Of a DNA stretch of 64,000 bases, positions 1 to 62,010 are shown in pieces. The stretch is from the IMG/VR virus record IMGVR_UViG_3300017716_002931, positions 1 to 64,000 of that record, one strand, 5' to 3'. The first letter of the stretch is position 1. Each line of letters begins with the position of its first letter. This stretch comes from a virus. The notes below the pieces were generated by a model. That model was given only the letters and a program-made list of their open reading frames with translations, made no database searches and was not told where the DNA came from. Both the position numbers and the translations under genes were made by a program.

Positions 1-129
1 GAACTACACAAAGATGATCCTGAACTAAAACCAAAGATTGTAGAACCAGACCCCGTAATACCTCTTACTGAAGAAAGATTGATGGTGATTGCAACAAATA
101 ACTCAAAAAACATGCGTCGTAAAATATGA
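1..129 (+). CDS. 3' end of hypothetical protein (truncated by window edge)
   Basis: Open frame from base 1 (ELHKDDPELK...MRRKI*); its TGA overlaps the thyA ATG (ATGA). Confidence 0.7.
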   Translation, partial: ELHKDDPELKPKIVEPDPVIPLTEERLMVIATNNSKNMRRKI

Positions 130-38221: not shown

Positions 38222-38222
38222 T

Positions 38223-40307: not shown

Positions 40308-40309
40308 TC

Positions 40310-42782: not shown

Positions 42783-43453
42783 ATATTAATTTTGTTACAT
42801 TTTCAAATTACAAATATACATCACAACAACAAAAACTCAATGAGTTTGCAAAAACATTGGGATTGAACTGCTTTCCGTATACATTCGACGAAATAAAATC
42901 CACCGACTTTTATCTGTCACATTCAAAAATCCTTGATAGAGAAAAAGGCAGTGGATTTTGTCTTTGGAAACCGTACATCATACTTGAAACACTGAAAAAA
43001 ATAGGCAACAATGAAATTTTGTTTTATATAGACAGTGCAGACATCTTTACAAAAGATGCATTAGAAATCATAGAGAAGGAACTTACATCAAAATCTATGT
43101 GCTTTCTACAAGGAGGATATCAGAATCAAATGTATACAAAACGTGATACGTTTCATTACATGGGATGTGATTACGATAAATATTGGAAGGCAAATCAATG
43201 TGAAGCGGGCGTGTTGGCCGTAAAAAACAATAACCACACCATCGATTTTGTATCTGAATGGTTTGAATATTGCAAAGATGAAAGAATCATAACAGATGAT
43301 CCAAACACTTGCGGTCTACCCAACTTACCAATATACGTAGATCACAGATACGATCAAAGTATTTTGTCTAATTTAATCGTTAACCACAACCAACTATATT
43401 TTCACAATGGCATTCGTAATTATATTAGATGTAACGTAAACAATTGTGACTAA
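42779..43453 (+). CDS. Putative GT-A glycosyltransferase
   Basis: GFCLWKPYII, FYIDS, YTKRD, DHRYDQSILS. Confidence 0.7.
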   Translation: MNINFVTFSNYKYTSQQQKLNEFAKTLGLNCFPYTFDEIKSTDFYLSHSKILDREKGSGFCLWKPYIILETLKKIGNNEILFYIDSADIFTKDALEIIEKELTSKSMCFLQGGYQNQMYTKRDTFHYMGCDYDKYWKANQCEAGVLAVKNNNHTIDFVSEWFEYCKDERIITDDPNTCGLPNLPIYVDHRYDQSILSNLIVNHNQLYFHNGIRNYIRCNVNNCD

Positions 43454-43458
43454 CAACT

Positions 43459-44268
43459 ATGATTAGCGTAAATTTAACTGTGCACAACAAAGCATTTCTT
43501 TTAGAAAGAGTTTTAGAAGGAATTAAAATAAATACTGTTGGATCATATGAATTGGTCGTGGTTCTTGATGGGTGTACGGATGAATCAGAACTCATTCTTG
43601 ACAACTTCATTGCGTCAAATCATTCAATACACATAAAGAAGTTCTATGCACCCAATGTATTTGAAACCAAATCAAACAACATTGCTGCAAGAAACAGCGA
43701 GGGCGATCATATCATTATTGTTCAAGACGACATGATAGTTAAAGAACACGGATGGAATGTCAGAATGTTGAAGCCAATACAAGCATTCAGTGATGTTTTT
43801 GCTGTTACGTCTAGAACCGCCCACAATTGGATATTAAACCCAAATTCAAAAGACGTTAACAAAGATGACTTTCATGGAAATGGTTGGGCAGACATTCTGT
43901 TTCATATGGATCACGCTGATAGAAACAACATAAACCGTGAGACTTTTGCTCTACGAGATTCAGTGAATAGAGGTCCGTTGTTGTTGAAACATAATGTGTT
44001 ACAAGAGTTGGATTATTTTGACGAAGAATTTTCTCCACAAGACATGGACGATCACGATCTGTGTTATAGAGCTTTTAAAAAAGGTTATAAATCCGGTTGT
44101 TATTGGATAGATTTTGAATCTCAAGATTCTTGGGGTGGAACAAGAGAAAATAACAAACCAAGGAAGTGGTTGTTGATGTCAAATTTCAAGAACAGCAAAA
44201 TTCTTCTATCCAGACACAGAGATTTAATCTGTGGATCAAAACGCAATCAAAACTTACATCTTCCATGA
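43459..44268 (+). CDS. GT2 glycosyltransferase
   Basis: VVLDGCTD, IIVQDD, YFDEEF....DDHDLCYRA. Confidence 0.85.
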   Translation: MISVNLTVHNKAFLLERVLEGIKINTVGSYELVVVLDGCTDESELILDNFIASNHSIHIKKFYAPNVFETKSNNIAARNSEGDHIIIVQDDMIVKEHGWNVRMLKPIQAFSDVFAVTSRTAHNWILNPNSKDVNKDDFHGNGWADILFHMDHADRNNINRETFALRDSVNRGPLLLKHNVLQELDYFDEEFSPQDMDDHDLCYRAFKKGYKSGCYWIDFESQDSWGGTRENNKPRKWLLMSNFKNSKILLSRHRDLICGSKRNQNLHLP

Positions 44269-44873
44269 AATTTTCAGATACATTCAAACAACAATATTAT
44301 CCTCAGATGTTCAGACCTGCACATCCTGCAAATCCAATTCGTAATAGAGGAGACAATTTTCAGTTCGTATTTGAGTATTTGGAGAAAATCAAAAATCCCG
44401 TTATACTTGAAACTGGAGTTATGCGTTCAGATCACGGAGACATGGCATTTGGCGATGATGGATGTAGTTCATTTTTGTTTGATCAGTTCATAAATGTTCA
44501 TGGTGGATTTTTTACATCTGTTGATATCAATGAAAACAATTGTCGTCATGCTAGATCAAAAGTAAGCAACAGATCAACTATAGTGTGTTCTGACTCCATA
44601 CCGTTTCTGTGGAATTACAAAGAAAAAGTTGATATGGTATATCTCGATTCATTCGATCTTGATTTAAAAAATCCAAATCCATCACAAATTCATCATCTCA
44701 AAGAATTATGCGCAATAGTTAAAAACCTACAGAGTCACACTTTGATTGTAATTGATGATCACATGACCCGAGATAATATGGGAAAAGGGTATCTGATCAA
44801 AGAATTTATGGCACAAATAGGAAAAACTCCTATTTTTGAAAACTACCAACTTGGTTTTATTTTTGGAGACTAA
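44265..44873 (+). CDS. Class I SAM-dependent methyltransferase (start re-called to 44265)
   Basis: ILETG, SVDI, CSDS..FL, DMVYLDSFD, IVIDD. Confidence 0.8.
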   Translation: MKFSDTFKQQYYPQMFRPAHPANPIRNRGDNFQFVFEYLEKIKNPVILETGVMRSDHGDMAFGDDGCSSFLFDQFINVHGGFFTSVDINENNCRHARSKVSNRSTIVCSDSIPFLWNYKEKVDMVYLDSFDLDLKNPNPSQIHHLKELCAIVKNLQSHTLIVIDDHMTRDNMGKGYLIKEFMAQIGKTPIFENYQLGFIFGD

Positions 44874-44880
44874 CACTTTT

Positions 44881-44941
44881 ATGGAAAACATTGAGATATA
44901 CCATGAGTGATTTGCTTCAGTATTGGTTAAACAAAATATAA
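44881..44941 (+). pseudogene. Collapsed remnant: gene start plus SDR-like C-terminus
   Basis: MENIEIYHE* overlapped by (T)MSDLLQYWLNKI*, which ends in a TAATG junction with the next gene. Confidence 0.4.
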
Positions 44942-45648
44942 TGACGCACGGCATAAAATCTTTTTTTGGAGGATTAGGAGACACGCTTCAATTCTCTACG
45001 TTACCTGAAATGTTTCACGAACAAGGCCATGATGTTTTTCTCACAGACGATGCCCCGTTCAGAAGTCCGCATACACGTTCACTGGTTTGGGATCTAAATC
45101 CATACGTTAAAGGCCAATCAAACGTGCCTTGGACCTTAGGCGACATTCCAGGCCGTGTATATGAGAATAGATTCGATGACTTCATAAAGAATTGGGAATA
45201 CGTTCATGGACTCATCCCCAAAAATAGCTTTCCAAAGATATACTACACACCAAAAAATGACATATCCAACATAGATACGTTAATTGATCTTGGATCCATA
45301 ACAGTGAGTTATGATTTACCAAAAGTTGTAAACTATATCAAATCCACTTATTCAAACATAAAACTAGTAATCAATCCTCATTCTTCGATTGATACGTTTG
45401 GATTTCAAACAATAGAAGCAGATACGTTAACCAAATATGTTGATCTGATTAACTGTTGTAAAACCTTTGTATCTTTGAGTTCGGGGCCACATATGCTTGC
45501 TGGTTCGATTCGTCACGTCAATACTAACTTCAACCAAGTATGTATAATGTCGTCACATAAATGTCCACATTCAAATGAAAATTGGTATAATTATCAAATG
45601 AGCAGAAAATTCTTTGTTCTTCCTTTAGTAAATTACATAAAAATATGA
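44941..45648 (+). CDS. GT9-like putative glycosyltransferase
   Basis: GGLGDTLQFS...NPYV; FVSLSSGPHMLA. Confidence 0.6.
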   Translation: MTHGIKSFFGGLGDTLQFSTLPEMFHEQGHDVFLTDDAPFRSPHTRSLVWDLNPYVKGQSNVPWTLGDIPGRVYENRFDDFIKNWEYVHGLIPKNSFPKIYYTPKNDISNIDTLIDLGSITVSYDLPKVVNYIKSTYSNIKLVINPHSSIDTFGFQTIEADTLTKYVDLINCCKTFVSLSSGPHMLAGSIRHVNTNFNQVCIMSSHKCPHSNENWYNYQMSRKFFVLPLVNYIKI

Positions 45649-46631
45649 GTCACTATACTATGAATATTTCAGTAACCGGCGATGTAGATGGATGTCGGTA
45701 TGACAAAAACAAAATGCTTGGGTTTATCGATGCATTTTCAAATGTACCTAATGTAAATTTTAGCTACATAAAACCTCACTTGAGTCATAACATCCCAAAA
45801 AATAAACAGATGGATATATTGTTTGGAGAATCGGGTGATTTCGATAAAATTTCATATGATGGAATCAAAAATGCGTTCATATGGGCGCTGATTGATGTTG
45901 AAAGTCTGGCAAAGAACAATCCTAACACAAACTTTTACATGTGTTCGAAAAGCATATTGCATGATTGGGACGTAATTGATGAATATTTGAGATTGGGGTT
46001 TTCGCCAAACTACCTACAATGGGGATTGGAAAATGTAAATGTTGTTGATTTCAAGAAGAAAATTCAAGATTCTAAAAAGATTTCTAATGATACCTATCAG
46101 TTATCTGACAATTTCTATTATATGTATCTTCCATGTTGTTTGGCTCAATCTACTATCAGACAATCAATCCCAAAAGATATAGATATCACGTACTTCGGAA
46201 CTCTTCACAATAGACCAAACGTAGTACACATGCTCAAAGTTCTTGAAAGTTCCGGCCTAAATGTTTCATACAACAAAAACGGTTATATCAGTCCAGAAGA
46301 ATGTATAAGTTGTTATAATCGTTCGATTGTCACTCTCCACGAAAATGTTGGTCCGGTTTATTTGGATTTTACAGTTAGATGTGGTGAGGCTCCAATGTGC
46401 AATTCAAAAATCTTCATGCTCAATAGAATAAGTGGAATGAAAGACTTTGCCAAGAAGCATGAAACTGTACCTGAGTGTGAGTCATTTGACAATGTAGATC
46501 ATATGATTTTCTCTATAAAATCATACATCCAAGACTATAAGAATGGAATAAATCAATACGTAAACGAAAAACCCAATACATATAGACATTATGCAAATAT
46601 GGTAGTCGATTTATGCAAACAAAAACAGTAA
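45645..46631 (+). CDS. GT-B (CgeB-like) putative glycosyltransferase
   Basis: DIDITYFGT....R, YNRS.VTLH, R..EAPMC. Confidence 0.55.
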   Translation: MSHYTMNISVTGDVDGCRYDKNKMLGFIDAFSNVPNVNFSYIKPHLSHNIPKNKQMDILFGESGDFDKISYDGIKNAFIWALIDVESLAKNNPNTNFYMCSKSILHDWDVIDEYLRLGFSPNYLQWGLENVNVVDFKKKIQDSKKISNDTYQLSDNFYYMYLPCCLAQSTIRQSIPKDIDITYFGTLHNRPNVVHMLKVLESSGLNVSYNKNGYISPEECISCYNRSIVTLHENVGPVYLDFTVRCGEAPMCNSKIFMLNRISGMKDFAKKHETVPECESFDNVDHMIFSIKSYIQDYKNGINQYVNEKPNTYRHYANMVVDLCKQKQ

Positions 46632-47614
46632 AAATTGTTGGATGTGGACTTGCTGGCGCTACAGCAGCTGCAGTTTTAAAAGAAAAGGGGTATCGTACAA
46701 TTATTTTTGAGAGCCGTAGTCATATAGGCGGTAATTGTTATGATTGTAATGTTAACGGTGTAATGTTGCATAATTACGGTCCTCATATCTTTCACACAAA
46801 CAACGATGAAGCGTTCAACTTTCTATCCAACTATACGGAGTGGATTCCATTTGAAGTCAAGCCAAAAGGCAAGACAAAGTTAGGCACTATATCTCTTCCG
46901 TATAGTAAAAAAACAAGAAAAGAATTGGGGCGAGATTTGACTTTTGAAGAGTTGGCTGATTTGATATACAAAGACTATTCTGAAAAACAGTGGGGTATAC
47001 CATATGAAAATCTACCAAAGTCTATAATCAGCAAACTCCCAAATACGTCCGACCTAGAAGATCCTACATGGTTTGGAACTCAAAAGCATCAGTGTCTACC
47101 AAAAAAAGGATACACTGCAATGTTTGAAAACATGCTTGATGGAATTGAAGTCAAACTTAACTGTTCTAAAAATGATTGGATAGATTATCCGGCAGATCTA
47201 ACAATTTATACTGGTCGAATAGACGAATACTTTAAGTTCTGTTTCGGCAAACTTCCTTATAGATCTTTGAAGTTCAAACACGAAGTCACCAGTGAAAAAA
47301 TGCCACACTTTTTAGAAAATTCAAATACCCACGAAAATCAGTATACCAGAAAATACGATCATAGTTATTTTACGCCTGGTCATAATGGAATTACTGTAAT
47401 TACAGAAGAATATCCTATTACATGTGGTGACAATGACATTCCATATTATCCGTTGTCTTTTAACGGCGGACCAGAACTGTATCAAAAGTATAAAGAGTTG
47501 ACACAACAAGAAAAAGACGTTATATTTACGGGAACTTTAGCAACATATGCGTATTTGGATATGGCTTTGGTAGTTGGCCAGGTATTGTCCAAACTTAAAA
47601 ACGTAACTTTGTGA
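46613..47614 (+). CDS. glf: Divergent UDP-galactopyranose mutase-like flavoprotein
   Basis: GCGLAG, IGGNCYD, H.YGPHIFHT, YSEKQWG, LPYRSL, PYYP, Y.YLDM. Confidence 0.85.
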   Translation: MQTKTVKIVGCGLAGATAAAVLKEKGYRTIIFESRSHIGGNCYDCNVNGVMLHNYGPHIFHTNNDEAFNFLSNYTEWIPFEVKPKGKTKLGTISLPYSKKTRKELGRDLTFEELADLIYKDYSEKQWGIPYENLPKSIISKLPNTSDLEDPTWFGTQKHQCLPKKGYTAMFENMLDGIEVKLNCSKNDWIDYPADLTIYTGRIDEYFKFCFGKLPYRSLKFKHEVTSEKMPHFLENSNTHENQYTRKYDHSYFTPGHNGITVITEEYPITCGDNDIPYYPLSFNGGPELYQKYKELTQQEKDVIFTGTLATYAYLDMALVVGQVLSKLKNVTL

Positions 47615-47630
47615 TTGAGAATAAAACAAC

Positions 47631-48569
47631 ATGACTAGTATCAAAAACAAAAAAATCTTCATCACCGGTGGCGCGGGTTATCTCGGAAAAGAGTTAATAA
47701 AATATTTCTATTCGGACAACCAAATAACCATATATTCGCGGGACGAAGCTAAACACTACTTCTTAAAAAAACAATACCCAAACCTAAATTGTGTAATAGG
47801 TGACGTGAGAAATTATGAATTGTTAAAGAGGTCATCCAAAAACAACGATGTAGGTATTTTTGCAGCATCTCTAAAACAAATCGAAGCATGTCATAACAAT
47901 TATGAAGAGGCAGAAGAAGTAATTGTTAAAGGAGCATTTAATAGTAGAAAAATATCTGAAGACCATAGTTTTGAATCGGCATGTTTTATTTCCAGTGATA
48001 AAAGTAGATCGGCTACAACCATTTACGGTGCCATGAAGTACGTGGCTGGAGAATCTTTTATATCCGGCACTTCAAACGTTTTGTTATCAACGGCTATTTA
48101 TGGTAATATAGTGAATAGCACCGGAAGTATACTACCATTGATATGGAACAGTATAAACAATAAACTACCCATCACTTTGTATGATCCTGAGATGACTAGG
48201 TTTCTCCTAACAATAGGAGACGCCGTGTCAGTTGTGGAAAAGTCACTGAAGTATACGAATGTAAATGTGATTCCTGTTGCTAAAAGTTTCTTTATATCAG
48301 ATCTATTTGATATCTTCAAAGACAAGTATGGATTAAAATTCAACATTTCTAAACCAAGAAGTGGTGAAAAGATCCATGAAATCATGGCGTCAAGTGAGGA
48401 AATTCCAAGAATGGAGTTTATAGAAAAAGATGACATCTATCTATTACACCAAGAAAAAACTTTTTGTAAACCAAGTTTTCCCAACAACGAATACTCATCG
48501 AGAGACAATTGTCTTTCAAAGAAAGACCTCGACCGGTTTTTGAAAACCCACAACTATTTTAAGCCATAA
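47631..48569 (+). CDS. UDP-GlcNAc 4,6-dehydratase-like (PseB/FnlA family)
   Basis: TGGAGYLG, YSRDE, GDVR, ISSDK, YGAMK, YGN..NS.GS, MTRF, GEKIHE. Confidence 0.85.
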   Translation: MTSIKNKKIFITGGAGYLGKELIKYFYSDNQITIYSRDEAKHYFLKKQYPNLNCVIGDVRNYELLKRSSKNNDVGIFAASLKQIEACHNNYEEAEEVIVKGAFNSRKISEDHSFESACFISSDKSRSATTIYGAMKYVAGESFISGTSNVLLSTAIYGNIVNSTGSILPLIWNSINNKLPITLYDPEMTRFLLTIGDAVSVVEKSLKYTNVNVIPVAKSFFISDLFDIFKDKYGLKFNISKPRSGEKIHEIMASSEEIPRMEFIEKDDIYLLHQEKTFCKPSFPNNEYSSRDNCLSKKDLDRFLKTHNYFKP

Positions 48570-48570
48570 T

Positions 48571-49371
48571 ATGCGAATTTTTATTTTAGGTTCGTCCGGC
48601 ATGCTCGGAACATATTTGAAACAACTGTTCAAATCAAAATACGAAACAATATGTCCAGACAGAAACGATGTTGATTTTTGTGATGATGAAAGTAAAATCT
48701 GCGATTTTTTTCAGCGTAATTCAATAAATGAACATGATATCATCATTAACTCTGCTGGTATAATCAAACAGAGGAAATCAAGTTTGGTGGAAATGGTGAA
48801 AGTTAACAGCTTGCTTCCTCATGTATTGACAAAAATCAAAGAAAAAAGCAACTGTCAAGTAATTCATGTAACTACAGATTGCGTGTTTAGTGGGAAAAAA
48901 GGAAGATATATAGAAACAGATGTACACGATTGTGAAGACGAATATGGAAAGAGTAAATCTTTGGGAGAAAACACCTCCTTAACAATAATCAGAACTTCAA
49001 TTATCGGGGAAGAGTTGAAAAACAAATTGTCACTGTGTGAGTGGGTCAAATCTCAGAACAATAAAACTGTAAATGGTTTTACCAACCACTACTGGAACGG
49101 ATTAACGTGTTTGGAATTAGCTAAAACAATAGATCAAATCATAACAAACAATGACTTTTGGAAAGGTGTTAGACATTTGTACTCTCCAAATACCGTTTCT
49201 AAATACGAACTTATAGAAAGTATCGCAAAACATTTCAATATTACATTAAAAATCAATGCAGTTCAATCAAACGATTGTTTTAGAAATCTAGATTCGATAC
49301 ATCAGTCAAAATACACAATTCGAGACTTGAATAAACAAATAAACGAGTTATCAAAATATGAACTGTTATGA
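48571..49371 (+). CDS. RmlD-like NDP-4-keto-sugar reductase
   Basis: GSSGMLG, TTDCVFSG..G.Y.E.D, YGKSK, RTSIIG. Confidence 0.85.
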   Translation: MRIFILGSSGMLGTYLKQLFKSKYETICPDRNDVDFCDDESKICDFFQRNSINEHDIIINSAGIIKQRKSSLVEMVKVNSLLPHVLTKIKEKSNCQVIHVTTDCVFSGKKGRYIETDVHDCEDEYGKSKSLGENTSLTIIRTSIIGEELKNKLSLCEWVKSQNNKTVNGFTNHYWNGLTCLELAKTIDQIITNNDFWKGVRHLYSPNTVSKYELIESIAKHFNITLKINAVQSNDCFRNLDSIHQSKYTIRDLNKQINELSKYELL

Positions 49372-50461
49372 TCTTCTAATAGTAGGAAGTGGTGTATTTG
49401 GAAGTGTTTTTGCTCAACAAGCAACAGAACACGGATTAAAATGTCTCATCATCGACAAACGTTCACATAATGCCGGAAATGCTTATACGGAAAACGTCCA
49501 TGGCATCAATGTTCACAAATATGGTCCTCATATTTTCTGGACACCAAACACAGAAGTTTGGGAATACGCAAATCGTTTTGCAAAATTTAATCACTTCACA
49601 AATCGTGTAAAAGTAAATAACCAAAACAAGATCTACTCATTTCCAATAAACCTGTTAACCATGCATCAGATGTTTGGGTGTAATACGCCCGAAGAAGCGG
49701 TTGCAAAGTTAGACTCTGTTCGTCTTAAAATAGAAAATCCATCGAACTTGGAAGAACATCTACTATCAACTGTAGGTGAAGAAATTTACCACAAGTTTTT
49801 TTACGGATACACCAAAAAACAGTGGGGTAGAGAACCAAGAGAGTTGCCCAAAAGCATCATAACTAGAATTCCTATCAGAACAAACTTTGACGACAATTAC
49901 TTATTCGATTGTCATCAGGGAATTCCAATCGGCGGTTACACAAAAATGTTGGAGAACATGCAAGTTGGGTGTGATCTGATTCTCAATGAAGACTATTTGC
50001 AAAATAGAGAATCGTGGGACAACGTGGCAAAGAAGGTGGTGTATACCGGTGCTCTTGATGAATTTTGTGATTACAAGTACGGAGAACTCGAATATCGTAG
50101 TTTGAGATTCGAAGAGTCTATACTTAACAAAAAGGATTATCAGGGATGTGCAATAATGAACTTCACAGAAGAGTCAGTCCCTTATACTCGCATCGTCGAA
50201 CATAAACACTTTGAATTTGGAAAGCAAGATGTTACAGTCATATCAAAAGAGTTTCCTCAGTCGTGGGAACGTGGTAAGGAAAAATACTATCCGATCAACG
50301 ATGAAAAAAATACGTATCTTTACCAACAATATAGATCTCTTTTCTCGGATGACTCAAAATACATTTTTGGTGGACGACTCGCAGAATACCGATACTACGA
50401 CATGCACCAAGTGATTTCCTCAGCAATTCATAAATTCAAAAAATTCATAGGTAAACCATGA
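49358..50461 (+). CDS. glf: UDP-galactopyranose mutase
   Basis: GSGVFG, HKYGPHIF, YTKKQWG, RIPIR, LEYRSL, YTRIVEHKHF, GRLAEYRYYDM. Confidence 0.92.
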   Translation: MNCYDLLIVGSGVFGSVFAQQATEHGLKCLIIDKRSHNAGNAYTENVHGINVHKYGPHIFWTPNTEVWEYANRFAKFNHFTNRVKVNNQNKIYSFPINLLTMHQMFGCNTPEEAVAKLDSVRLKIENPSNLEEHLLSTVGEEIYHKFFYGYTKKQWGREPRELPKSIITRIPIRTNFDDNYLFDCHQGIPIGGYTKMLENMQVGCDLILNEDYLQNRESWDNVAKKVVYTGALDEFCDYKYGELEYRSLRFEESILNKKDYQGCAIMNFTEESVPYTRIVEHKHFEFGKQDVTVISKEFPQSWERGKEKYYPINDEKNTYLYQQYRSLFSDDSKYIFGGRLAEYRYYDMHQVISSAIHKFKKFIGKP

Positions 50462-51354
50462 AAATTCAAATAGTTACACACCTGCTTCCACACGAATTGG
50501 ACGAGTTTGAACGTCAATTGTGCGTATTGAGTTCATATCCAATAACTGACGATGAAGTTATTCTTGATGTTACATTGAACGTAAACACCGTTGATTGGGA
50601 TAATGCAAAGATTCCAATTGAGTTCTTCGTAGAGAAGTTCAATAAGCTTCAAAACTACGTCACTAAAACAAATTGGTGTAAACAAGCTTTGTTTGATGTA
50701 GATGACACAGGAAAATGTAAAGGAATAAATGACAAACGCCGTAACAGTATTCGTCAATATGCTGATACCGTCGATGCGTTTGTGTATTTGGACTCAGACT
50801 TGGTATTTCAAGACTACACTCTTCCTTATTTGATTCATTGTGCTAAGACTGTCAAGAACAAATACTTCATACTAACCCCACAAATTCCAAAGATTTGGGA
50901 TGCCACATGGGATCATCTAGTCAACACTCGTTATATCGATAACCCATATGGAAGTGAACGATCATTCAATCCATATTATGGAACAAAAACAATTTCAGAT
51001 GAAGTAACGCTCATCAAATCGCCACAAATAAAACTCGGCGGAGGATGGTTCAACCTGTTTAGTTCCAATTTGTTGAAGTATACTGACATTCCTGATATTT
51101 TGGGCCCATACGGTGTGGATGACACTTATGTAATGTTCGCTGCCCAAATCATGCGACTCAATGGTGAAGATATAGAACAGTATATATTGAAGAATGTGAT
51201 AGTAGCAGAGAACTATCTACTTAGAAACAATCCGTACAAAGAGTTTATTCCGTATAAAACAGGTAGAGAAGATTACAAATCAATAGCAGAACAGAATTTG
51301 CGTGGATGTCTCAACGACTTTCAAGTAAAACATTCATATGTATTGAAAAAATGA
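50458..51354 (+). CDS. Putative GT-A glycosyltransferase
   Basis: FVYLDSD (DxD), YG.DDT; island context. Confidence 0.55.
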   Translation: MKIQIVTHLLPHELDEFERQLCVLSSYPITDDEVILDVTLNVNTVDWDNAKIPIEFFVEKFNKLQNYVTKTNWCKQALFDVDDTGKCKGINDKRRNSIRQYADTVDAFVYLDSDLVFQDYTLPYLIHCAKTVKNKYFILTPQIPKIWDATWDHLVNTRYIDNPYGSERSFNPYYGTKTISDEVTLIKSPQIKLGGGWFNLFSSNLLKYTDIPDILGPYGVDDTYVMFAAQIMRLNGEDIEQYILKNVIVAENYLLRNNPYKEFIPYKTGREDYKSIAEQNLRGCLNDFQVKHSYVLKK

Positions 51355-51689
51355 ACGACGTAAATTCAATATGTTTCACAGTTGTATGTTTGTTGCTTTG
51401 GTTTCATACTGAAACCGTACTTTCTTATGCGCAACTATTCAGGTTGAGAAAGTTATTCAAAATATCCGACTTTGAAGAAGATAGAACGCATGATTTTACT
51501 ATTGAATACCCTCAGTGGTTATATAAGAAACATCCTGGCTTTTTAACAAAACTATTGAGTTGCCCTTGGTGTATAGGATTTTGGATATGCTTATCATCCT
51601 GTTTATTCTGTAACACGACCGACATGTTTTTTGCGGAATATTTGATATCAATGATCACATACTTTTTTGTATCAAATAAAATACTATGA
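51351..51689 (+). CDS. DUF1360-like membrane protein
   Basis: KLLSCPWCIGFW with flanking hydrophobic helices. Confidence 0.6.
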   Translation: MNDVNSICFTVVCLLLWFHTETVLSYAQLFRLRKLFKISDFEEDRTHDFTIEYPQWLYKKHPGFLTKLLSCPWCIGFWICLSSCLFCNTTDMFFAEYLISMITYFFVSNKIL

Positions 51690-51979
51690 ATGTAGGCAAC
51701 TTCACAGAATTTTATAACCTGTTGAAAAACAATGATGCTATAACCAACACAATTCCACATCTTAGAGATTTTGTTGTGTTGGCAGAAACCTATCGTGATA
51801 TGTGTTCTTGTGATCGTAAATCAGAAAAACTACGATTGAAAACCGAGTGTGAATCTCAGTACAGAATACTTGTGACCACTGTTATTACCGCAAACATAAA
51901 TGTATTCTTTACCGTACTAAAACAATCTCACATTCGGTTCATTCATAACTGCGCCGTTATTCGAGAGTTTTCTCAGTAG
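51686..51979 (+). CDS. Hypothetical protein
   Basis: 97 aa, CSC motif, ATGA-coupled. Confidence 0.6.
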
Positions 51980-53306
51980 ATTTGAAAATATATCGATCCT
52001 TGGTTAAGATGATACGAGGATCTTCTCTCAAAGCATTTCGATATGGTGTGAATGAAATCTGTCGTCCCCACCCCAAGTCGTCAAGGATTTCTCTCTTTGT
52101 TACAGATACATTCTTTTCAATATACTTGACAATATCAACATACACCTTGCTGCGTTTGATGATTTCGTAGTCATCGAAGATGTTCCAGTTATCAAACCAA
52201 GTCAAAACAGTGTTCTTGATATTGAGACTATCAGCAATTTCTTCTAGTTTATTACGATGATCCAATTTGAAATTCTTGTTGTCCAATGCATGTTCTAACT
52301 TGTTCAAAAACTCAGTTTCATTTTCATAGAACAAGGGATAATCAATACCAACCATTTCAGGATAACACAACTTCTTTGGAAGAAGATATGGCAAACCCCT
52401 CGTTAAGCCGTCTGTAACACTCAAGGACCACGCAGAATATGTTTGGAAGTATCCAACACCAACATGCATCTGTTTGATAAAGTCAAAATACTTGTTTCTC
52501 TCAAGTTCAACTCTCTTGATGTAGGGCCTAGACTCTTCTGCCAATGTCACGTACACCGTGAAATCTTGCCGTTTTGCCCACAACTTATCCATTACAGATA
52601 CAAAATCATTCCATCCTGTATAATCGTTGGGTCGATGGTTGAAGAAAATGCTCTTATCGATGGTCTTATCGTCACTGAAATCACTGTCAGCAGGAAGATA
52701 GTGAGGTTGAATAATACGATTGAGCTTATTGATAACATCAGCACTAAAGTTGTCCGCTGCTCTATCAAGAATCAAATCCTTCAGCCACCTAGAATTTACT
52801 CCACACTCTTCCATCTCAAGAGTCCCAAGAATGTTCAAATCAAACACGTCCTTTGGATATCCGGTGTTTTCAGCTACCTCATACCAATGGCAATATCCAA
52901 CAAACTTTGGTCTGATACCAGCGTTGTTGTAAAAATAATTTGCTAGTTGAAGAGTTTGTTCCGGAAGATGTGAATAGATTATGTCATAATCCTTATTATG
53001 CACATCAAGAAGATCAGATACTTTATCCACATTGAAATGAATACGCATTGTATTCGGATAGCTAGGGAACTTATAGTAAATTTGTTCGGTGTTATCATAT
53101 TGAAGCAATTTTGTGTGAGAAGGAGTTACTATAGTCCAAAAGATATCATCACGAATAGAACGTAGTGCTCGAATCACACTAGCCAATACAATTACATAAG
53201 AATCCTTCTCAAGATTTTCAGAGTATGTTATATTTGGCCATACCAAAATCTTGTGTTTGTATTCCTTATCCAGCTCAGATTGTTCCGTTTCAAAAAATTC
53301 ACTCAT
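51957..53306 (-). CDS. GT-B glycosyltransferase with C-terminal winged-helix-like domain
   Basis: [28 protein letters not shown]...P...YPEM; tail [22 protein letters not shown]. Confidence 0.7.
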
Positions 53307-54256
53307 GTTGTGTATGACACTATAGTCTTTTTCATTGAGTCTGTAAAGTTGTTATACTCAATCTTTCCAAGTTTATTGGTGTAGTCTTCAGTATTAATAG
53401 CATATCTAAAATCATGACCTTTTCTATCACCAACAAACTTTATGAAGTCATAATCAACTGTTTGGCCAGTTACCTCTTCATAACATTGCTTGATAATATA
53501 TACCAACAACAGATTAGATAGTTCACGATCTCCTCCGATTAAATACTGTTCACCAATTTCTCCTTTTTCCAAAATGTTGATCAACGCATTGACGTGATCT
53601 TTAACATAAATCCAGTCACGGACATTTTTGCCATCGCCGTATACCGGTACTGGCAACCGTCGCATAAAGTGATCGATGCAGGTTGGTATCATTTTCTCTT
53701 TATACTGCCGTGAACCAAAATTGTTGCTACAGTTTGTTATGATTGTGGGAAGTTTATGGGTTACATTATAACTCCTTACCAACAAATCGCTAGCAGCTTT
53801 ACTGGCTGCATAGGGGCTATTGGGTCTATAGGGAGAGTTTACTGTGAACGGCGAATCATTCGGTCCCAAACTACCAAACACTTCGTCTGTTGACACGTGG
53901 ATAAACTTTTTGAGGTGATCAATAGAACGAACGCATTCTAGTAGATTGTGTGTTCCGACCACATTGGTTTGAATAAATGGGGCAGAGTTTTTAATGCTGT
54001 TGTCCACGTGACTTTCAGCAGCAAAATGAACCACGTAATTCACATGAAAGGTTTTGAGTATAAACAAAACAAAATCTTTGGTGATATCTACGCTGAACTG
54101 TTTGTACCGAGAATCCAATTCAAACGGAAGATTCTTATTGGCAGCATATGTCATTGAATCAATGTTAACAACCTGTTCAACATCGTCACGTTTAAGAATC
54201 TCTTCTATAAAGTGAGATCCTATGAATCCACATCCTCCAGTTACCAATATTCTCAT
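53303..54256 (-). CDS. rmlB: dTDP-glucose 4,6-dehydratase
   Basis: [57 protein letters not shown]. Confidence 0.95.
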
Positions 54257-55491
54257 ATCACCTCAAACTTTGGACATGGAACAATGAAGTGACCTCCCTC
54301 TTGTAGATACTTAACTTCACGTTTTTTGAATTCGTCGATGAAATGCCATGGAAGAACCAATAGATACTTGGGTTTAGCCTGTCTCATTTCTTCTTCTGAG
54401 TAGATTGGAATGTTTGTTCCCACCGTTTTTAATCCAAACTTGTATGGACTTCTTTCAGCTGCACCATCAATTAGGGTATTATCCAAACCGAAATATTGTA
54501 GAAGCGTGTTTCCCTTGGTAGACGCTCCATACACCCACACTTTGTCTCCTTGTGATTTTTTTAACGTAACAAACTCATGAACCGTATTTTTTAATTCACG
54601 CAACTTGTCGTAAAAATTGAGATAAAACTCAATGGTGTTTGCACCAATCTTGTTCTCATATTCAAACAATGAATTTACACGATATTGTGCAACATCTCTG
54701 TATGGCGCATTTGCAAATGACGTAAATGATGCGTCATTTTTTTGTAGATACACTCTGAATGATCCACCATTTACATCGTTTAGTTCACAATCGACAATCT
54801 TGAATTGGGTTTGTTGAAGAACATATGACAAAGAATGTAGAGTATAATACATCAGATGTTCATGACAAATATTGTCAAAAGCCATTTGTTGGATCATCAA
54901 TGGGGTGTAACTCATTTGAATTATGAACATTCCGTCGTCCTTTAGAACCTCGTACACATCATTCAAAAATGATACGGGATCGGGCAAGTCATAAAACATT
55001 GCGATACACGTGACAATATCACACTTACGTCCTTTGAATGTGCTTTTATCAAACGATTCTTTGGTAAAATAATCTTGTACAATTTCATCTGCAAATTTCT
55101 TGCTCTCTTTTGTATAAGACTCATTAGCAGGATCGATACCAATTTTTTCGTAGGTGTCAGGAACAAAACTCAATAGAGTTCCGTCATTACATGCAATGTC
55201 CAACCACAACGGTTGTTCGGTTGACTTATGTACAGACACACAACTATCCACAACGTTTTTAAGTTGGTTACGCATGGTTTGATTGGTGCCGGATCGATAC
55301 CAATATCGACCATACATTTTATTAGGATCAGCAGATTGTTCGAGTTGAACTAGTTTAGATGTTTTTGAGAACATCAACTTGAGTTCACTCTTATACTCAT
55401 CGGGTGGCTGTTGTTGTACAAAATCTGATATGAACAAATTTCCGAGAGAAAACAGTTCGACCAATTCATCGTTGGCGACTCTACATTTCAT
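54253..55491 (-). CDS. NDP-hexose C-methyltransferase (Methyltransf_13/14-like)
   Basis: Y.YRSG, DIACNDGTLL, FDNICHEH, GGS.R, YGASTKGNTLL, VLPWHF. Confidence 0.88.
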   Translation of the reverse strand: MKCRVANDELVELFSLGNLFISDFVQQQPPDEYKSELKLMFSKTSKLVQLEQSADPNKMYGRYWYRSGTNQTMRNQLKNVVDSCVSVHKSTEQPLWLDIACNDGTLLSFVPDTYEKIGIDPANESYTKESKKFADEIVQDYFTKESFDKSTFKGRKCDIVTCIAMFYDLPDPVSFLNDVYEVLKDDGMFIIQMSYTPLMIQQMAFDNICHEHLMYYTLHSLSYVLQQTQFKIVDCELNDVNGGSFRVYLQKNDASFTSFANAPYRDVAQYRVNSLFEYENKIGANTIEFYLNFYDKLRELKNTVHEFVTLKKSQGDKVWVYGASTKGNTLLQYFGLDNTLIDGAAERSPYKFGLKTVGTNIPIYSEEEMRQAKPKYLLVLPWHFIDEFKKREVKYLQEGGHFIVPCPKFEVI

Positions 55492-55495
55492 ATTA

Positions 55496-56359
55496 TTAAT
55501 TCCAATTGTTTAAACAGTAGTCTAGTGCTTCGTTTACATCCCTCATTTTAATTCCCGTATCCAATAGTTTTTTATTACTCATCACACAATTAGAACGAGG
55601 AGTTTTTGCCGCTGTCTTATAGAAATCTTCCTCGTTATCAAAAAATTCAAACTCCCTATCTTTGGCGATTGTGTTTTTTATCTTCTCAATAACTTGTTTG
55701 GTTGTAACATGACCAGTGTTAGTTACGTTGTAAGTCCCATATGGAACCTTCTTAAGAACACATTCAACACAAGCACGAACAAAATCTTCCTTATTAGAAA
55801 TAGAGTTCTCAGCATCCAAAAGTTTTTTGTAATTCAACATTTTGGATAGATAATTCCTTGGATTATGATTTTCTTCAAAAGGAATCCTAAGTCTCCAAAT
55901 ATAGTGATTGTCGCCATTTCTACGAATCAAATCTTCTGCCAATGCTTTTGTTCCGCTATAAAAACTACAATTGTTGTGTTCAAAACTGAAATTAGGACGA
56001 TCAATTTCCGTGAACGGGCTACCGTCGTTATTTCTTCCTGTGTAAATACATCCTGATGATACATGACCAAATGTTATATTGTGATCGTTACAAAAGATAG
56101 AAATCATGTCTGGTACACTGACATTTCCATAAATTGTATTGTGTTTGTCCGTCTCACACGCATCTACATTTGGTTTTCCAGTATATCCTGCGCAATTGAT
56201 GATCGATGTCAAACCCAACGCACCATGCAACAGTTTAAGCTGATTATATGTAAGTTCTTTTGTTGGGACGGAACAATTTCGAGTATCCACTCCTTTTTTG
56301 AAAAGTTGTTTATGAAACTCTTGTCCAATATATCCCGACGACCCTAGTAATAATATCAT
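55496..56359 (-). CDS. NDP-4-keto-6-deoxyglucose 3,5-epimerase/4-reductase (UER1-like RmlD family)
   Basis: GSSGYIG, NCAGYTGKPNVDACE, SSGCIY, SFYSGTK, LRIP. Confidence 0.8.
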   Translation of the reverse strand: MILLLGSSGYIGQEFHKQLFKKGVDTRNCSVPTKELTYNQLKLLHGALGLTSIINCAGYTGKPNVDACETDKHNTIYGNVSVPDMISIFCNDHNITFGHVSSGCIYTGRNNDGSPFTEIDRPNFSFEHNNCSFYSGTKALAEDLIRRNGDNHYIWRLRIPFEENHNPRNYLSKMLNYKKLLDAENSISNKEDFVRACVECVLKKVPYGTYNVTNTGHVTTKQVIEKIKNTIAKDREFEFFDNEEDFYKTAAKTPRSNCVMSNKKLLDTGIKMRDVNEALDYCLNNWN

Positions 56360-57195
56360 AATGATTCCAAGTAAGTTCTATATTCTGATTTTGGCATTTT
56401 ATTTACCAACTTAGTTAACTGTGATCTATCTATAAATCCTTGATTCAGGCAATCTTCTTCAATACATGCAACTTTACATCCTTGACGGTCCTGAACCGTT
56501 TGTACGTAATTACTAGCCTGAGATAGAGTTGTTGGTGATCCTGCATCCAACCAAGCCGTTCCTTTCGGCATTTTAATGACATTTAAGTTACCTGATTCCA
56601 AGTATTTACGGTTGATGTCGGTGATTTCAAGTTCTCCTCGTTTGGAGGGTTTTATACTCTTTGCATAATCTATCACTTTACCGTCGTAGAAATATAGGCC
56701 AGGAACGGCGTATTTACTCTTAGGCGACGTTGGTTTCTCTTCTATGATCAACGCCTTGCCCGCGTCATCAAACTCAACCACACCGTATTCTTGTGGGTTG
56801 TTGACTTTATAGGCAAATATCACCGCACCTGTAAAGTCTACCCTCATTTTATTGAATCCGTGAAAAACGTTGTCTCCCAAGATCAATGCAATATTTTGTA
56901 GATCTATGAAATCTTCAGCAATAAGAAACGATTGTGCAATTCCTTCTGGTTTTGGTTGGGCTTTGTATTCAATGTTTAATCCCAAATGATTTCCATCGCC
57001 AAACAACTTTTCATATAGTGGAAGGAAATTGAAAGAAGAAATGATACAAATGTCTTTGATTCCACACGAAATCAATGTGGACAAAGGATAGTAGATCATC
57101 GGTTTGTCGTAAACAGGCAATAGTTGTTTGTTCACCACCGTTGTAAGTGGATACAGTCTACTACCCGTTCCTCCCGATAAAATAATACCCTTCAT
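56356..57195 (-). CDS. rmlA: Glucose-1-phosphate thymidylyltransferase
   Basis: GIILSGGTGSRLYPLT...KQLLPVYDKPMIYYPL, LGDN, EEKP, RGELEITD, WLDAG. Confidence 0.96.
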   Translation of the reverse strand: MKGIILSGGTGSRLYPLTTVVNKQLLPVYDKPMIYYPLSTLISCGIKDICIISSFNFLPLYEKLFGDGNHLGLNIEYKAQPKPEGIAQSFLIAEDFIDLQNIALILGDNVFHGFNKMRVDFTGAVIFAYKVNNPQEYGVVEFDDAGKALIIEEKPTSPKSKYAVPGLYFYDGKVIDYAKSIKPSKRGELEITDINRKYLESGNLNVIKMPKGTAWLDAGSPTTLSQASNYVQTVQDRQGCKVACIEEDCLNQGFIDRSQLTKLVNKMPKSEYRTYLESL

Positions 57196-57857
57196 TTATT
57201 AATCAACTTTTCGTACACGTTTCCAACGATCAAATTCAACTCTTCATTTGCAACAATTTCCTCGTATGTCTTTCCATTCGAAGACACATGTTGCCATTCC
57301 ACTTGAAAATCCGCTGCTGCCTTGACTTTAGGATCGTTCCAACGTTCGTGATCATTTGCCGGTTCAACCCAAATCTTCTGATTGGTACTGGCAATGTCAC
57401 TACGGATGCGTCTTCCCTCCGTTGGAAATCCGTATGTGTATTTTGAGACGTGGATTAACGATCCGTTCAAATCGTTCTTGATCCAACCCACTTCATCTTT
57501 GGGATAAAAATCATAACGGATATCAGTGACAAAAACAACATCTGAATTGTCTTTCTCAATATCGGATTGAAGCTTCTCTACCCAATATCTTCCGTTGGTT
57601 TGTTTTCGTTTTACGTCTCCATACCAAACCAACATTTCTCTAAAAACTTTCTTTTGATCTGTGTTTTCCGTAAACACATCCAATCCCAGCTTATCCTTGA
57701 TAAACTCTTTACAGTCATTCTTCAAATAGAATGCCAAAGCATATGAACTGCATGTTAGTCCATACTTTTCTGTTAGAATCTTTTTTGATATGTCACAAAA
57801 CAGATTTTTACCTGCTCTTGCTACTCCTGAAATTCCAATATAACGTTTGTTACTCAT
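57192..57857 (-). CDS. Deoxynucleoside monophosphate kinase (T4 gp1-like)
   Basis: IGISGVARAGKN P-loop, R..L...G...R, VTDIRY...E. Confidence 0.8.
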   Translation of the reverse strand: MSNKRYIGISGVARAGKNLFCDISKKILTEKYGLTCSSYALAFYLKNDCKEFIKDKLGLDVFTENTDQKKVFREMLVWYGDVKRKQTNGRYWVEKLQSDIEKDNSDVVFVTDIRYDFYPKDEVGWIKNDLNGSLIHVSKYTYGFPTEGRRIRSDIASTNQKIWVEPANDHERWNDPKVKAAADFQVEWQHVSSNGKTYEEIVANEELNLIVGNVYEKLINK

Positions 57858-58362
57858 ATGTCATTATTGACTCGACTTCTTTATCTGTCAATCCGTATGC
57901 TTTACATATGGATTTTAATTCGATAACACCGCTTTCATCTTTCATATAAAGATGACAGTATTCCTTGGCTTCTGACTTGGACACCTCAAACCTTTTTGAC
58001 ACCAAATTTAACAAATCAGAGGTAAATCCTTTGGAGTTGGACTTGACATATGGAAAATATGTGGATGATTGATTTGTGACAGCGGTACACAACGTATAAA
58101 AATTACGTGACGGTATATCGGATTGGTATTTGGCTATACTCGATATGCTATCAATCGAACTACGATCCATAGACAAAAAACGCAGAATCATGAAGTGATT
58201 AAACGACTTCTTGTCTGCGTCTGATAACTTGTCGTAATAGTCAGAAGATTGTACTTTCCTGATATGGTTCACATGGTCAAACAATCCCAATGCTTTGGGG
58301 ATTGGATTTCCATTTTCATCGATCTCTACTTTCTTAGATTTTGTTGCCGGTTTTTTTGCCAT
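57850..58362 (-). CDS. Clamp loader small subunit (gp62-like)
   Basis: LFD.VN.I, FN.FMI.RFLSM, YFPYVK, FEVS..EA..Y. Confidence 0.75.
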   Translation of the reverse strand: MAKKPATKSKKVEIDENGNPIPKALGLFDHVNHIRKVQSSDYYDKLSDADKKSFNHFMILRFLSMDRSSIDSISSIAKYQSDIPSRNFYTLCTAVTNQSSTYFPYVKSNSKGFTSDLLNLVSKRFEVSKSEAKEYCHLYMKDESGVIELKSICKAYGLTDKEVESIMTYE

Positions 58363-58751: not shown

Positions 58752-58764
58752 AAATTTCACCCCC

Positions 58765-59076: not shown

Positions 59077-59128
59077 ATAACTTATTTTTTGTTTTTTAGT
59101 CTAGGTTAGTATGTAACTAACTTCTACC

Positions 59129-60825: not shown

Positions 60826-62010
60826 TCACCGTCCAACTTCGTTAAAAAAGTTGTTTTTAGCATCGGTATATGACATTCCTATCATTTTGTTATAAAAAAG
60901 AGTGTCTGTTTTGAGATTTCCTTCTGTTTTTAACTTCAAATATCGATCTTTAGCTTTTGGTTTCCACCAATCAAATATGGCCTTCTTATCATCAACAAAC
61001 AGTTGCTTCATAACCAACTGATCGTCAGTGATTTTACCACACAAATACTCCTTAGTATTGTTATAGAATGGACTATAGTAAACTCCACGTTCGTATCCAT
61101 GAACATAGTCTTGAGTTTTGATGTTTAAAGTTTGAAAAATCATAGATATGACTCTCTGTTTTGCACCTGTAACAGGCCCAGATACATTTTCCTTCTGAGT
61201 CATCTTCTTATCATACTCCACAGATCGATTTTCCTTAATCCAATCGTGCCATATCTTATATACGGTGTCATCCGGCTTAATTGGTATCTTGCCAGTAGAA
61301 GATCCACACTTGTGCCACCACTTCAAACTGTTGTACATACTGTAACTTCCGTACAAACTTGTCGTAGTCATGCCCGCCAATGTCTGGCCATAGAGCTTTT
61401 TCCATACATCTCGTACAACAGATGATGTAACCAAACATGCCACCAGCTTGCCACCAAGAAAATTGTATCCAAACGGTTGTGTACTCATAATGCAGCTGCC
61501 AATAGCACTATGAACCAACTTTTTATCTATCAGTTTGTTCTCCGAAGTCCACCCAATGTACTTGTCTCTAGTAGTAATGGTGATTACGTCACTCGAAACA
61601 GATGTAGCACCAAGATACCGAGGGTTATCTTCGTTGCCATCGGTGATCAAGAACTTCAAAAACCTACCAGGCGTCTGACTGAACTCCATTGTGTGACAAA
61701 ATACCCGAACCATCAACCACGCAAACTCCTGAGCCTCAGTTTCTACGTGGACGATAGTAGGATTCAGTTCGTCCAACTCCTTTAGAGTCAATTCTTCGTT
61801 GTTAATGTCGGTAGGCGCCCAAATCTTAGCTTTGATCAACGCACTTTTTGATATAGATGGTCGATATTCCTGAACTTCTTCGTATTTTTTGTAAAACGTG
61901 GCTTCTTCAACGGTCATAGCCTTGAGAAAGTCGATATTTTTGACAAACTTCTTCTTCTCAAGTTCAAAATCAAACTCGTCAATATTAAAAAATTCGTGTG
62001 CGGCGCTCAT
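60826..62010 (-). CDS. DUF4338 / DruA-like protein
   Basis: PGRFLKFLITD...YLG, RDKYIGW, QPFGYNFLGGKLVA, TTTSLYG..S.YN. Confidence 0.75.
   Translation of the reverse strand: MSAAHEFFNIDEFDFELEKKKFVKNIDFLKAMTVEEATFYKKYEEVQEYRPSISKSALIKAKIWAPTDINNEELTLKELDELNPTIVHVETEAQEFAWLMVRVFCHTMEFSQTPGRFLKFLITDGNEDNPRYLGATSVSSDVITITTRDKYIGWTSENKLIDKKLVHSAIGSCIMSTQPFGYNFLGGKLVACLVTSSVVRDVWKKLYGQTLAGMTTTSLYGSYSMYNSLKWWHKCGSSTGKIPIKPDDTVYKIWHDWIKENRSVEYDKKMTQKENVSGPVTGAKQRVISMIFQTLNIKTQDYVHGYERGVYYSPFYNNTKEYLCGKITDDQLVMKQLFVDDKKAIFDWWKPKAKDRYLKLKTEGNLKTDTLFYNKMIGMSYTDAKNNFFNEVGR

Follow-up and report, generated by a model that had tools for sequence, protein, structure and literature searches.

What does a glycosyltransferase (GT) act upon when its gene closes a run of replication and sugar-nucleotide genes, and when its own C-terminus looks like a winged helix? 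The question is raised by IMG/VR record IMGVR_UViG_3300017716_002931, a 95,212-bp viral contig [CheckV completeness approximately 31%] of which the first 64 kb, positions 1 to 64,000, were analyzed and are here called the window. Its source is an uncultured freshwater T4-like phage related to the Kyanoviridae. The run consists of seven open reading frames (ORFs) on the minus strand, extending from 58362 to 51957, the last of which encodes the 449-aa winged-helix GT (51957..53306). Glycosylation of phage DNA, by whatever chemistry, is the role that we prefer for this enzyme, with low confidence and by a slight margin over glycosylation of protein.

The minus-strand run and its glycosyltransferase

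The initial annotation had read the seven ORFs as genes for a clamp-loader small subunit, a deoxynucleoside monophosphate (dNMP) kinase, RmlA, a UER-type epimerase/reductase, a nucleoside diphosphate (NDP)-hexose C-methyltransferase, RmlB and a GT-B enzyme, and profile, PDB and structural matches bear out this content. The run, described there as tightly coupled, is translationally coupled: ATGA overlaps join four of the gene pairs (dNMP kinase/RmlA, RmlA/epimerase-reductase, C-methyltransferase/RmlB and RmlB/GT), the clamp-loader and dNMP kinase genes overlap by 8 nt, and a gap of 4 nt separates the epimerase/reductase gene from that of the C-methyltransferase. Nucleotide megablast of the operon against phages gave no match.

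The first gene (57850..58362) encodes a gp62-like clamp-loader small subunit [phrog_225, 3e-12; Pfam Phage_clamp_A 0.009]. It is followed by a gene for a dNMP-kinase-like P-loop protein (57192..57857) which was recognized through its residues 1–140 by phrog_139 [2.7e-12] and matched no PDB sequence at E≤1; with this single PHROG match it is the weakest annotation of the run. The dNMP-kinase-like gene adjoins gp62 in relatives without rml genes as well.

The next four genes specify sugar-nucleotide enzymes. RmlA, glucose-1-phosphate thymidylyltransferase (56356..57195), exceeds the equivalog cut-off of its model [TIGR01207, 387.4 bits, cut-off 360.65; PF00483, 2e-59], while RmlB, dTDP-glucose 4,6-dehydratase (53303..54256), falls slightly under [TIGR01181, 360.7 bits, cut-off 365.1; PF16363, 7e-64]. 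The short-chain dehydrogenase/reductase (SDR) at 55496..56359 is a putative NRS/ER (UER)-type 3,5-epimerase/4-reductase. Its best PDB matches are Arabidopsis NRS/ER [1.9e-27, 4qqr] and Mimivirus UDP-L-rhamnose synthase [1.2e-18, 7jid], with RmlD behind them [1e-10], and on the RmlD model TIGR01214 it reaches 70 bits, far under the cut-off of 224. That the protein is closer to 4qqr and 7jid than to RmlD favors the UER-type assignment. No RmlC (PF00908) is encoded in the 95 kb, and this putatively bifunctional SDR appears to be standing in for RmlC plus RmlD, presumably using dTDP- instead of UDP-sugars. Mimivirus L780 likewise is an NRS/ER-type bifunctional enzyme in place of RmlC and RmlD.

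The remaining enzyme (54253..55491) is an NDP-hexose 3-C-methyltransferase of the TylC3/TcaB9/KijD1 type. It carries PF08484 [145.9 bits, 1e-42], the S-adenosylmethionine (SAM) domain PF13489 and the zinc domain PF08421 [23.8 bits, under its cut-off], and aligns over its full length to PDB 4rv9 [1e-36] and TcaB9 [1e-29]; KijD1 is also related. The zinc domain, SAM domain and PF08484 stand in the same arrangement as in these actinomycete pathway enzymes. Theirs, however, are 2,6-dideoxy or 3-amino sugars, and neither a 2,3-dehydratase nor an aminotransferase is present here; the likely substrate would be dTDP-4-keto-6-deoxyglucose or an epimer of it.

By their sequence assignments the four genes would make up a self-sufficient dTDP-6-deoxyhexose cassette. 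RmlA would form dTDP-glucose and RmlB dTDP-4-keto-6-deoxyglucose, the TylC3/TcaB9-type enzyme would methylate C3, and the NRS/ER-type SDR would carry out 3,5-epimerisation and 4-reduction without RmlC. From this enzyme set one would expect dTDP-L-rhamnose or a 3-C-methyl-6-deoxyhexose to be formed. The cassette would supply dTDP-L-rhamnose or its 3-C-methyl form to the winged-helix GT, to which it is translationally coupled through the ATGA overlap. The GT would be produced together with the replication genes, would be tethered to nucleic acid by its winged helix and would transfer the sugar to phage DNA via a handle other than a hydroxymethyl- or hydroxypyrimidine. This handle may be a side chain provided by adjoining enzymes of the DruA-family or Mom-like GNAT type.

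No family of Pfam (E≤0.01), PHROG or NCBIfam matches the 449-aa GT. Its homologs, which number 594 in a set of 5.8 billion proteins, are nearly all 440–450 aa long, and PF00534 is carried by 92%, 68% and 10% of the members in close viral Atlas clusters. An AlphaFold2 model built from an alignment of 45 homologs [pLDDT 88, pTM 0.85] displays a GT-B fold with two Rossmann-like domains, of which the GT4-like catalytic core comprises residues 15–382 (52161..53264, minus strand). Foldseek placed GT4 enzymes on top [1e-10] and the HY126 DNA arabinosyltransferase at rank 2. In VIA-align the highest Z scores were obtained with BshA [26.0, root mean square deviation 3.2, 332 residues aligned], sucrose-phosphate synthase [25.8] and PglA [24.9], and 16 GT4-type enzymes stood above Z 22. 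The known DNA GTs came lower: the HY126 arabinosyltransferase had a Z of 21.4 (rank 17) and T4 AGT [1y6f] one of 18.6 (rank 28), while T4 BGT was not among the best 50 matches listed. The GT-B identity given to 51957–53306 is well founded in the model; AGT lies under many unrelated GT4 enzymes in the comparison. The closest viral structural matches outside the family are Arthrobacter phage glycosyltransferases [1e-18 to 1e-20, TMq 0.69–0.79], and a profile of the whole family found nothing significant among PDB sequences.

Behind the core, residues 383–445 (51972..52160, minus strand) form a basic C-terminal domain of the winged-helix type. Over residues 387–441 of the model [pLDDT 85–96] DSSP gives the order alpha1-beta1-alpha2-alpha3-beta2-beta3, that is, helices at 387–399, 404–411 and 420–428 and strands at 401–402, 432–434 and 439–441. 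Structural alignments to solved GTs all end at about residues 375–384, so that the tail lies outside every one of them. It is basic in all 45 homologs [median isoelectric point (pI) 9.9, net charge +7] and its invariant residues are K404, W413, Y422, R423, L426, R427 and Y439, with an invariant YRNxLR motif in the third helix. The same winged helix is retained in family members at 18–30% identity. Those language-model neighbors of the tail which bear names belong to winged helix-turn-helix families only [scores 0.77–0.79, all below 0.82], and a profile of the domain matched no PDB sequence significantly. Through canonical topology, charge and conservation, with the language-model matches as weak leads, the earlier impression that the last 60 or so residues look like a winged helix is supported, not confirmed; the fusion of a GT-B enzyme with such a tail appears to be real in the model.

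Relatives and their gene neighborhoods

The GT-winged-helix family, without annotation today, is present in at least 221 IMG/VR viral loci, 80 of which were fetched, their ORFs called and clustered. Only in seven of these 80 do rml genes adjoin the GT, namely in its closest relatives (72–98% identity). In all seven the cassette is immediately upstream of the GT and ATGA-coupled to it; two of them (L006 and L009) are without the C-methyltransferase, which is apparently a variable member of the cassette. Because rml genes are confined to the seven closest relatives, the cassette is a recent lineage-specific insertion between the dNMP kinase gene and an older GT gene.

Relatives at 57–59% identity (L012–L018) display the order gp62, dNMP kinase, a short DruA-family gene and GT. 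This second DruA-family paralog (254 aa, approximately 9240–10008) immediately precedes the GT, in the very position at which the window has the rml cassette. Following the GT in the same direction are orf180, GT4, dUTPase, GT+FkbM and GT2, homologous to the start of a large island of GT and sugar-nucleotide genes which in the window is convergent with the run. In L013, L015 and L017 these five genes are co-directional just downstream of the GT (dUTPase at about 13.4–13.7 kb); in the window they are inverted.

At about 50% identity there are no sugar genes near the GT. A long DruA-like gene is located upstream of it, directly or via one to three small ORFs, and downstream one finds either an HD-like protein and a baseplate module or a gp44-like clamp loader. 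In L073–L076 the order is gp45-like, DruA-like, GT, gp44-like, Mom-like and gp62-like. The GT stands at the edge of the baseplate module in some 50 loci, and in nearly all of 70 loci its start overlaps or abuts the stop of the upstream gene. These gene orders across the 80 loci indicate that the GT is an old resident of the replisome cluster and the cassette a recent one, and that the large GT island has grown or been rearranged beside it. The replication linkage proposed from the window is therefore well borne out and older than the window shows, since in relatives the GT is found between gp45-like and gp44-like genes or beside gp62 and the dNMP kinase gene.

Tblastn with the GT yielded no match among 50,697 deposited phage records up to an E value of 5, and a distant member likewise yielded none. 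The close family is virus-only except for two short contigs of metagenome-assembled genomes among 185,579 species genomes.

These neighborhoods bear upon the possibility that the rml cassette works for the island or for host glycans and lies beside the GT by chance, and that the GT does a separate job with a host NDP-sugar, be it RNA or tRNA glycosylation, synthesis of a small-molecule product, or sugar-responsive regulation via the winged helix. Most family members indeed have no sugar-nucleotide genes nearby; in contig G004 RmlA and GT2 genes lie some 20 kb from the GT; the stretch that separates the replication module from the baseplate module is plastic, the island being inverted relative to L012–L018; and the top structural matches of the GT are the small-molecule GT4 enzymes BshA, MshA and sucrose-phosphate synthase. 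Against this, the cassette lies exactly upstream of the GT and is ATGA-coupled to it in seven of seven relatives possessing it. That the first GT genes of the island directly follow the GT in a second lineage likewise argues for a functional tie between this GT and the glycan genes. On balance we find a separate job doubtful, if little less likely than glycosylation of DNA or of protein.

The most constant neighbor of the GT is a protein of the DruA/DUF4338 family, a family which has been termed GNAT (PMC10853773). In the window it is 394 aa in length (60826..62010, minus strand) and possesses PF14236 [82.5 bits, cut-off 27]; its AlphaFold2 model [pLDDT 90] has a GNAT core. The best VIA-align match of this model is phage Mu Mom [8bv8, Z 9.9, 162 residues aligned], and in this the neighbor is like Mom and the DruA of Druantia, but its score is within 1 of those of generic GNATs [Z 8–9]. 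Mom acylates adenine in DNA. DruA-family genes, as the long form or the short paralog, adjoin the GT in four distinct gene contexts. A Mom-like DNA modification gene [phrog_1384, 8e-40] occurs in the replication module beyond the window (67596–68378 of the genome), and in many relatives a homolog of it is found no more than 10 kb from the GT. Since cultured Kyanoviridae carry DruA-like genes without the GT, the association holds in one direction only, and inherited gene order may account for part of it. A predicted complex of the GT with the DruA-like protein received a score of 0.00, which is no verdict, neither for nor against binding, and as far as our literature search reached no link between any GNAT and a DNA glycosyltransferase has been described. 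One specific form of DNA glycosylation, in which a GNAT-installed acyl or aminoacyl side chain is capped by the GT with L-rhamnose or 3-C-methyl-rhamnose and perhaps extended by GTs of the island, is in our estimation unlikely.

A metagenome scan revealed a distant subfamily of about 27% identity with the same winged-helix signature on bacterial contigs (L093–L109, metagenome contigs); no distant members were found in viral contigs using single proteins or small alignments. Of the bacterial contigs, one of 311 kb carries a PAS/GAF sensor gene and a second one encodes a tyrosine integrase. The neighbors in this subfamily include a CHAT protease, a related protein of 230–270 aa, a metallophosphoesterase, a patatin-like lipase and a subtilase, and there is no DruA-like gene nearby. 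Judged by its gene content the setting looks like a conflict or defence neighborhood, and the gene set may represent a module for defence or conflict that has yet to be described. These neighborhoods suggest that the broader family acts in phage–host conflict, not in structure building.

The search for an acceptor base

T-even phages possess GT-B DNA glucosyltransferases, and in T4 the dCMP hydroxymethylase gp42 as well as gp56 and gp1. The initial annotation took these phages as its analogy. As with T4 AGT and BGT, we find a GT-B gene among early or replication genes, and dNMP-kinase-like and dUTPase-family genes are present; but no hydroxymethylase was found here, and the T4 enzymes, which draw upon the UDP-glucose of the host, lack a winged helix.

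The annotation had cautioned that no enzyme making a hydroxylated base was visible in the window. We too found none, although it had overlooked a homolog of thymidylate synthase (TS) at 126..1331 (plus strand). This protein scores over both TS equivalog cut-offs [NF002496, 342 bits, cut-off 325; TIGR03284, 331 bits], and its best 60 PDB matches are all TS. It is 401 aa long owing to insertions of about 100 aa in the small domain, and TS of the related contigs are equally long (378–403 aa). Residues L143, D169 and N177 separate TS from hydroxymethylases and 5-hydroxy-dCMP synthases (PMC13326640). All three are TS-type in 126–1331 and in three related contigs, the aspartate being retained at the D169 equivalent (YQRSQD in the window; also in G001, G002 and G005) with no D169N signature. 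The length of the protein had made it a candidate hydroxymethylase, which these diagnostic residues and the equivalog scores reject; it is a true TS supplying dTMP, not a hydroxylase.

No second TS homolog occurs in the window of this approximately 31% complete contig. Two other GT-bearing contigs, 79% and 89% complete, carry ThyX and no TS homolog, an alternation of ThyA and ThyX which is as expected for alternative routes to dTMP. Tet_JBP (PF12851) was absent at E≤0.1 from contigs G000–G004, a search which did not address divergent 2-oxoglutarate oxygenases. Neither TGT/DpdA nor QueC was found in five contigs, and a 7-deazaguanine route was dropped for this reason.

A second precedent is provided by phages whose DNA-glycosylation clusters contain genes for the NDP-sugar and can include several GTs as well as a UDP-galactose mutase (PMC13326640); RB69, DLP3 and HY126 make arabinosyl-5-hydroxycytosine (5hoC) and Rhizobium phage RL38JI makes hexosyl-5hoC. 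The likeness is considerable, that is, a T4-like phage in which GT-B enzymes lie beside phage genes for activated sugars, several GTs together with a mutase, and the HY126 GT at Foldseek rank 2 [VIA-align Z 21.4]. These clusters, however, require a D169N TS homolog making 5-hydroxy-dCMP where the residues here are the TS-type D169 and N177; their donors are UDP-pentose or UDP-hexose, whereas a dTDP-6-deoxyhexose is expected here; and the winged helix is an addition of the present family.

T-even-style glycosylation of a hydroxymethyl- or hydroxypyrimidine would thus need a hydroxylase encoded in the unsampled 69% of the genome. With some 31% available, a dUTPase and a dNMP-kinase-like gene present, and the HY126 GT and T4 AGT among the matches to the GT-B fold, one might still consider it; but the 79% and 89% complete contigs carry ThyX only, the existing TS homologs are TS-type at the three diagnostic positions, Tet_JBP is absent, and the dUTPase (37631–38221), although extended at its C-terminus by about 50 aa, conforms to canonical dut [TIGR00576, 142 bits]. 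We consider this most improbable. Since the TS is true, ThyA alternates with ThyX and Tet_JBP, DpdA and QueC are missing, a pathway of either the T-even or the 5hoC type is not supported by the sequences at hand. The T-even analogy accordingly is not supported, the more so as AGT reached a Z of only 18.6 and the cassette is lineage-specific.

Transfer of dTDP-rhamnose or a C-methyl sugar onto DNA, as the initial annotation had it, is left with the cassette, the fusion of GT and winged helix, and the replication link, and without its T-even route. In favor of a role linked to nucleic acid are the basic and conserved winged helix, the embedding in and coupling to the replisome genes, the Mom-like GNAT neighbors and the conflict-type relatives. 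Several points weigh against DNA as the acceptor. To our knowledge, and in agreement with PMC13326640, every known DNA O-glycosylation requires a hydroxylated-base handle, and no enzyme making such a base was found, not even in the contigs that are 79–89% complete; ThyX in those two contigs and the lack of TGT/DpdA and QueC in five belong to the same side. The GT core is nearer, in the model, to generic GT4 enzymes for small molecules, lipids and glycans [Z 24–26] than to DNA GTs, and its N-terminal (acceptor) domain is acidic [median pI 5.4, net charge -8 in the 45 homologs]. Lastly, most of the family has no rml genes nearby, so that the donor link is lineage-specific.

Genomic setting and the convergent island

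By way of the DruA-like gene the closest cultured relatives are Kyanoviridae, that is, Pelagibacter phages Mosig and HTVC008M and Synechococcus phages. The T4-like replication genes of the window include those for DNA polymerase B (31199–33865), a sliding-clamp-like protein (27292–28035) and a gp44-like clamp loader (26320–27285), and past the window end the same contig encodes NrdAB, a DnaB-like helicase, UvsX and a gp32-like protein. A UvdE-type UV endonuclease (59171–60109) and a PD-(D/E)XK nuclease of the Cas4/RecB-like type (34937–35833) also lie among the replication genes. Adjoining the DNA polymerase gene is one for a 456-aa fusion of a HAD phosphatase and a MobA/IspD-like nucleotidyltransferase (28660–30030), a pairing reminiscent of the sugar-activation enzymes in phage arabinosyl-DNA pathways.

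The 530-bp "gap" between the UvdE and clamp-loader genes (58600–59080, minus strand) contains small genes. One specifies a 103-aa protein (58765–59076) with a basic tail of KKTDKPKK repeats, of which residues 1–67 are conserved in L006–L011 and L014; a terminator-like hairpin (58515–58544) is situated within a small ORF. Matches to sigma-70-type promoters were at chance level, as was TATAAATA, and Rfam gave no match in the window.

Near-identical DNA, covering the stretch in whole or in part, is present in freshwater and lake metagenomes (20 runs among those listed, from 17 studies), and 14 runs contain at least half of the sampled words of the stretch. Short exact pieces of the GT, C-methyltransferase, RmlA, dNMP kinase and DruA-like genes and of the island also occur in two metatranscriptome libraries from lakes, contigs from RNA libraries being no proof of transcription. 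The highest contig depth in these two libraries is at 58600–59080.

The island (36118..51979, plus strand) converges with the minus-strand run, the two overlapping by 23 nt (51957–51979). Pfam recognizes in it GT4, dUTPase, GT+FkbM, two GT2, a GT11 fucosyltransferase-like enzyme, a GT7C/GT34-like enzyme, two Glf, a CapD-like dehydratase and a reductase. The GT-like genes number at least nine altogether and are accompanied by several methyltransferases, and a minimum of four sugar pathways is represented. The GT and the FkbM methyltransferase are fused in a protein of 705 aa (38190–40307). The two paralogs of UDP-galactopyranose mutase (Glf; 46613–47614 and 49358–50461) suggest that furanose sugars are made. 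The block orf180, GT4, dUTPase, GT+FkbM, GT2 is kept in order in two phage lineages. Further sugar genes are located elsewhere in the window, for a GDP-mannose dehydratase (6083–7300) and for a Fringe-like GT with a methyltransferase (18.9–20.3 kb). The complexity of the island is far beyond the needs of any known DNA glycan, which must be added to the points against DNA as the acceptor, although in Pootjesviridae a mutase and three GTs are able to serve DNA glycosylation.

The initial annotation described the run as transcribed opposite to a large surface-glycan island. A convergent plus-strand island there is, but "surface" is a putative label, no polytopic membrane protein being encoded in it. 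None of its proteins has more than two predicted transmembrane segments, and no primer, flippase or polymerase of the Wzx/Wzy/WecA type was found. The absence of this usual membrane machinery from the island argues for a cytoplasmic acceptor.

Envelope-glycan genes are frequent in islands of aquatic T4-like phages. The run and the island might then remodel the host envelope (lipopolysaccharide, capsule or S-layer glycan) during infection via the lipid carriers and exporters of the host, and GT4, GT2 and rml are typical O-antigen genes. Remodeling of this kind has to contend with an island that contains no priming phosphoglycosyl transferase, flippase, polymerase or polytopic membrane protein, with genes embedded in a replisome cluster, and with a GT bearing a winged helix. 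It seems to us quite improbable.

In size and enzyme types the island resembles the capsid-glycan systems of giant viruses more nearly than known DNA glycans. As with the multi-domain GT/methyltransferases of chloroviruses, the GTs are soluble, membrane export genes are missing, a GT–methyltransferase fusion is present and methylated deoxysugars are expected; here, however, the carrier is dTDP (RmlA/RmlB) rather than UDP, and the virus is a tailed phage. Similar protein glycosylation is carried out by chloroviruses, mimiviruses and actinobacteriophages. The target might be virion or other protein: the GT would prime a cytoplasmic, membrane-independent glycan which hypervariable GTs of the island extend on capsid, tail or DNA-associated proteins, and the winged helix would bind protein or simply position the enzyme in the zone of replication and packaging.

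Much of what has been described above is compatible with a protein acceptor. The island with its nine or more GTs, methyltransferases, GT11-like enzyme and two Glf, the GDP-mannose dehydratase gene at 6083–7300, the giant-virus type of the NRS/ER enzyme [7jid] and the lack of Wzx/Wzy/WecA-like polytopic proteins all fit, as do the Arthrobacter phage glycosyltransferases which head the viral structural matches outside the family. The acidic acceptor domain would suit a basic protein acceptor, the GT borders the baseplate module in about 50 loci, and the pattern of conservation is that of a primer GT which is conserved and of elongating GTs which vary. Set against this, a strongly basic winged helix whose recognition helix contains Arg, Asn and Tyr as invariant residues has no obvious role with a capsid-protein acceptor, the GT is apparently co-transcribed with replication and not structural genes, and the distant relatives reside in conflict islands of bacteria, a setting to which no virion belongs. 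We remain doubtful about protein as the target, but hardly more so than about DNA, the acceptor that we favor by a narrow margin.

The operon and the fusion are real, and expression of a few genes would allow their function to be tested directly. Phage DNA glycosylation is a major means of escape from restriction and CRISPR, and all of it that is known to us begins at a hydroxylated pyrimidine. A widespread, phage-only winged-helix GT located near Mom-like GNATs is a cloneable candidate for a different chemistry. Should the GT prove to cap a GNAT-installed side chain on DNA, this would be the first DNA modified with a deoxyhexose or a branched sugar and the first DNA glycosylation not proceeding from a C5-hydroxylated pyrimidine; should the target be protein, an abundant lake phage would possess a membrane-independent glycosylation like that of giant viruses.

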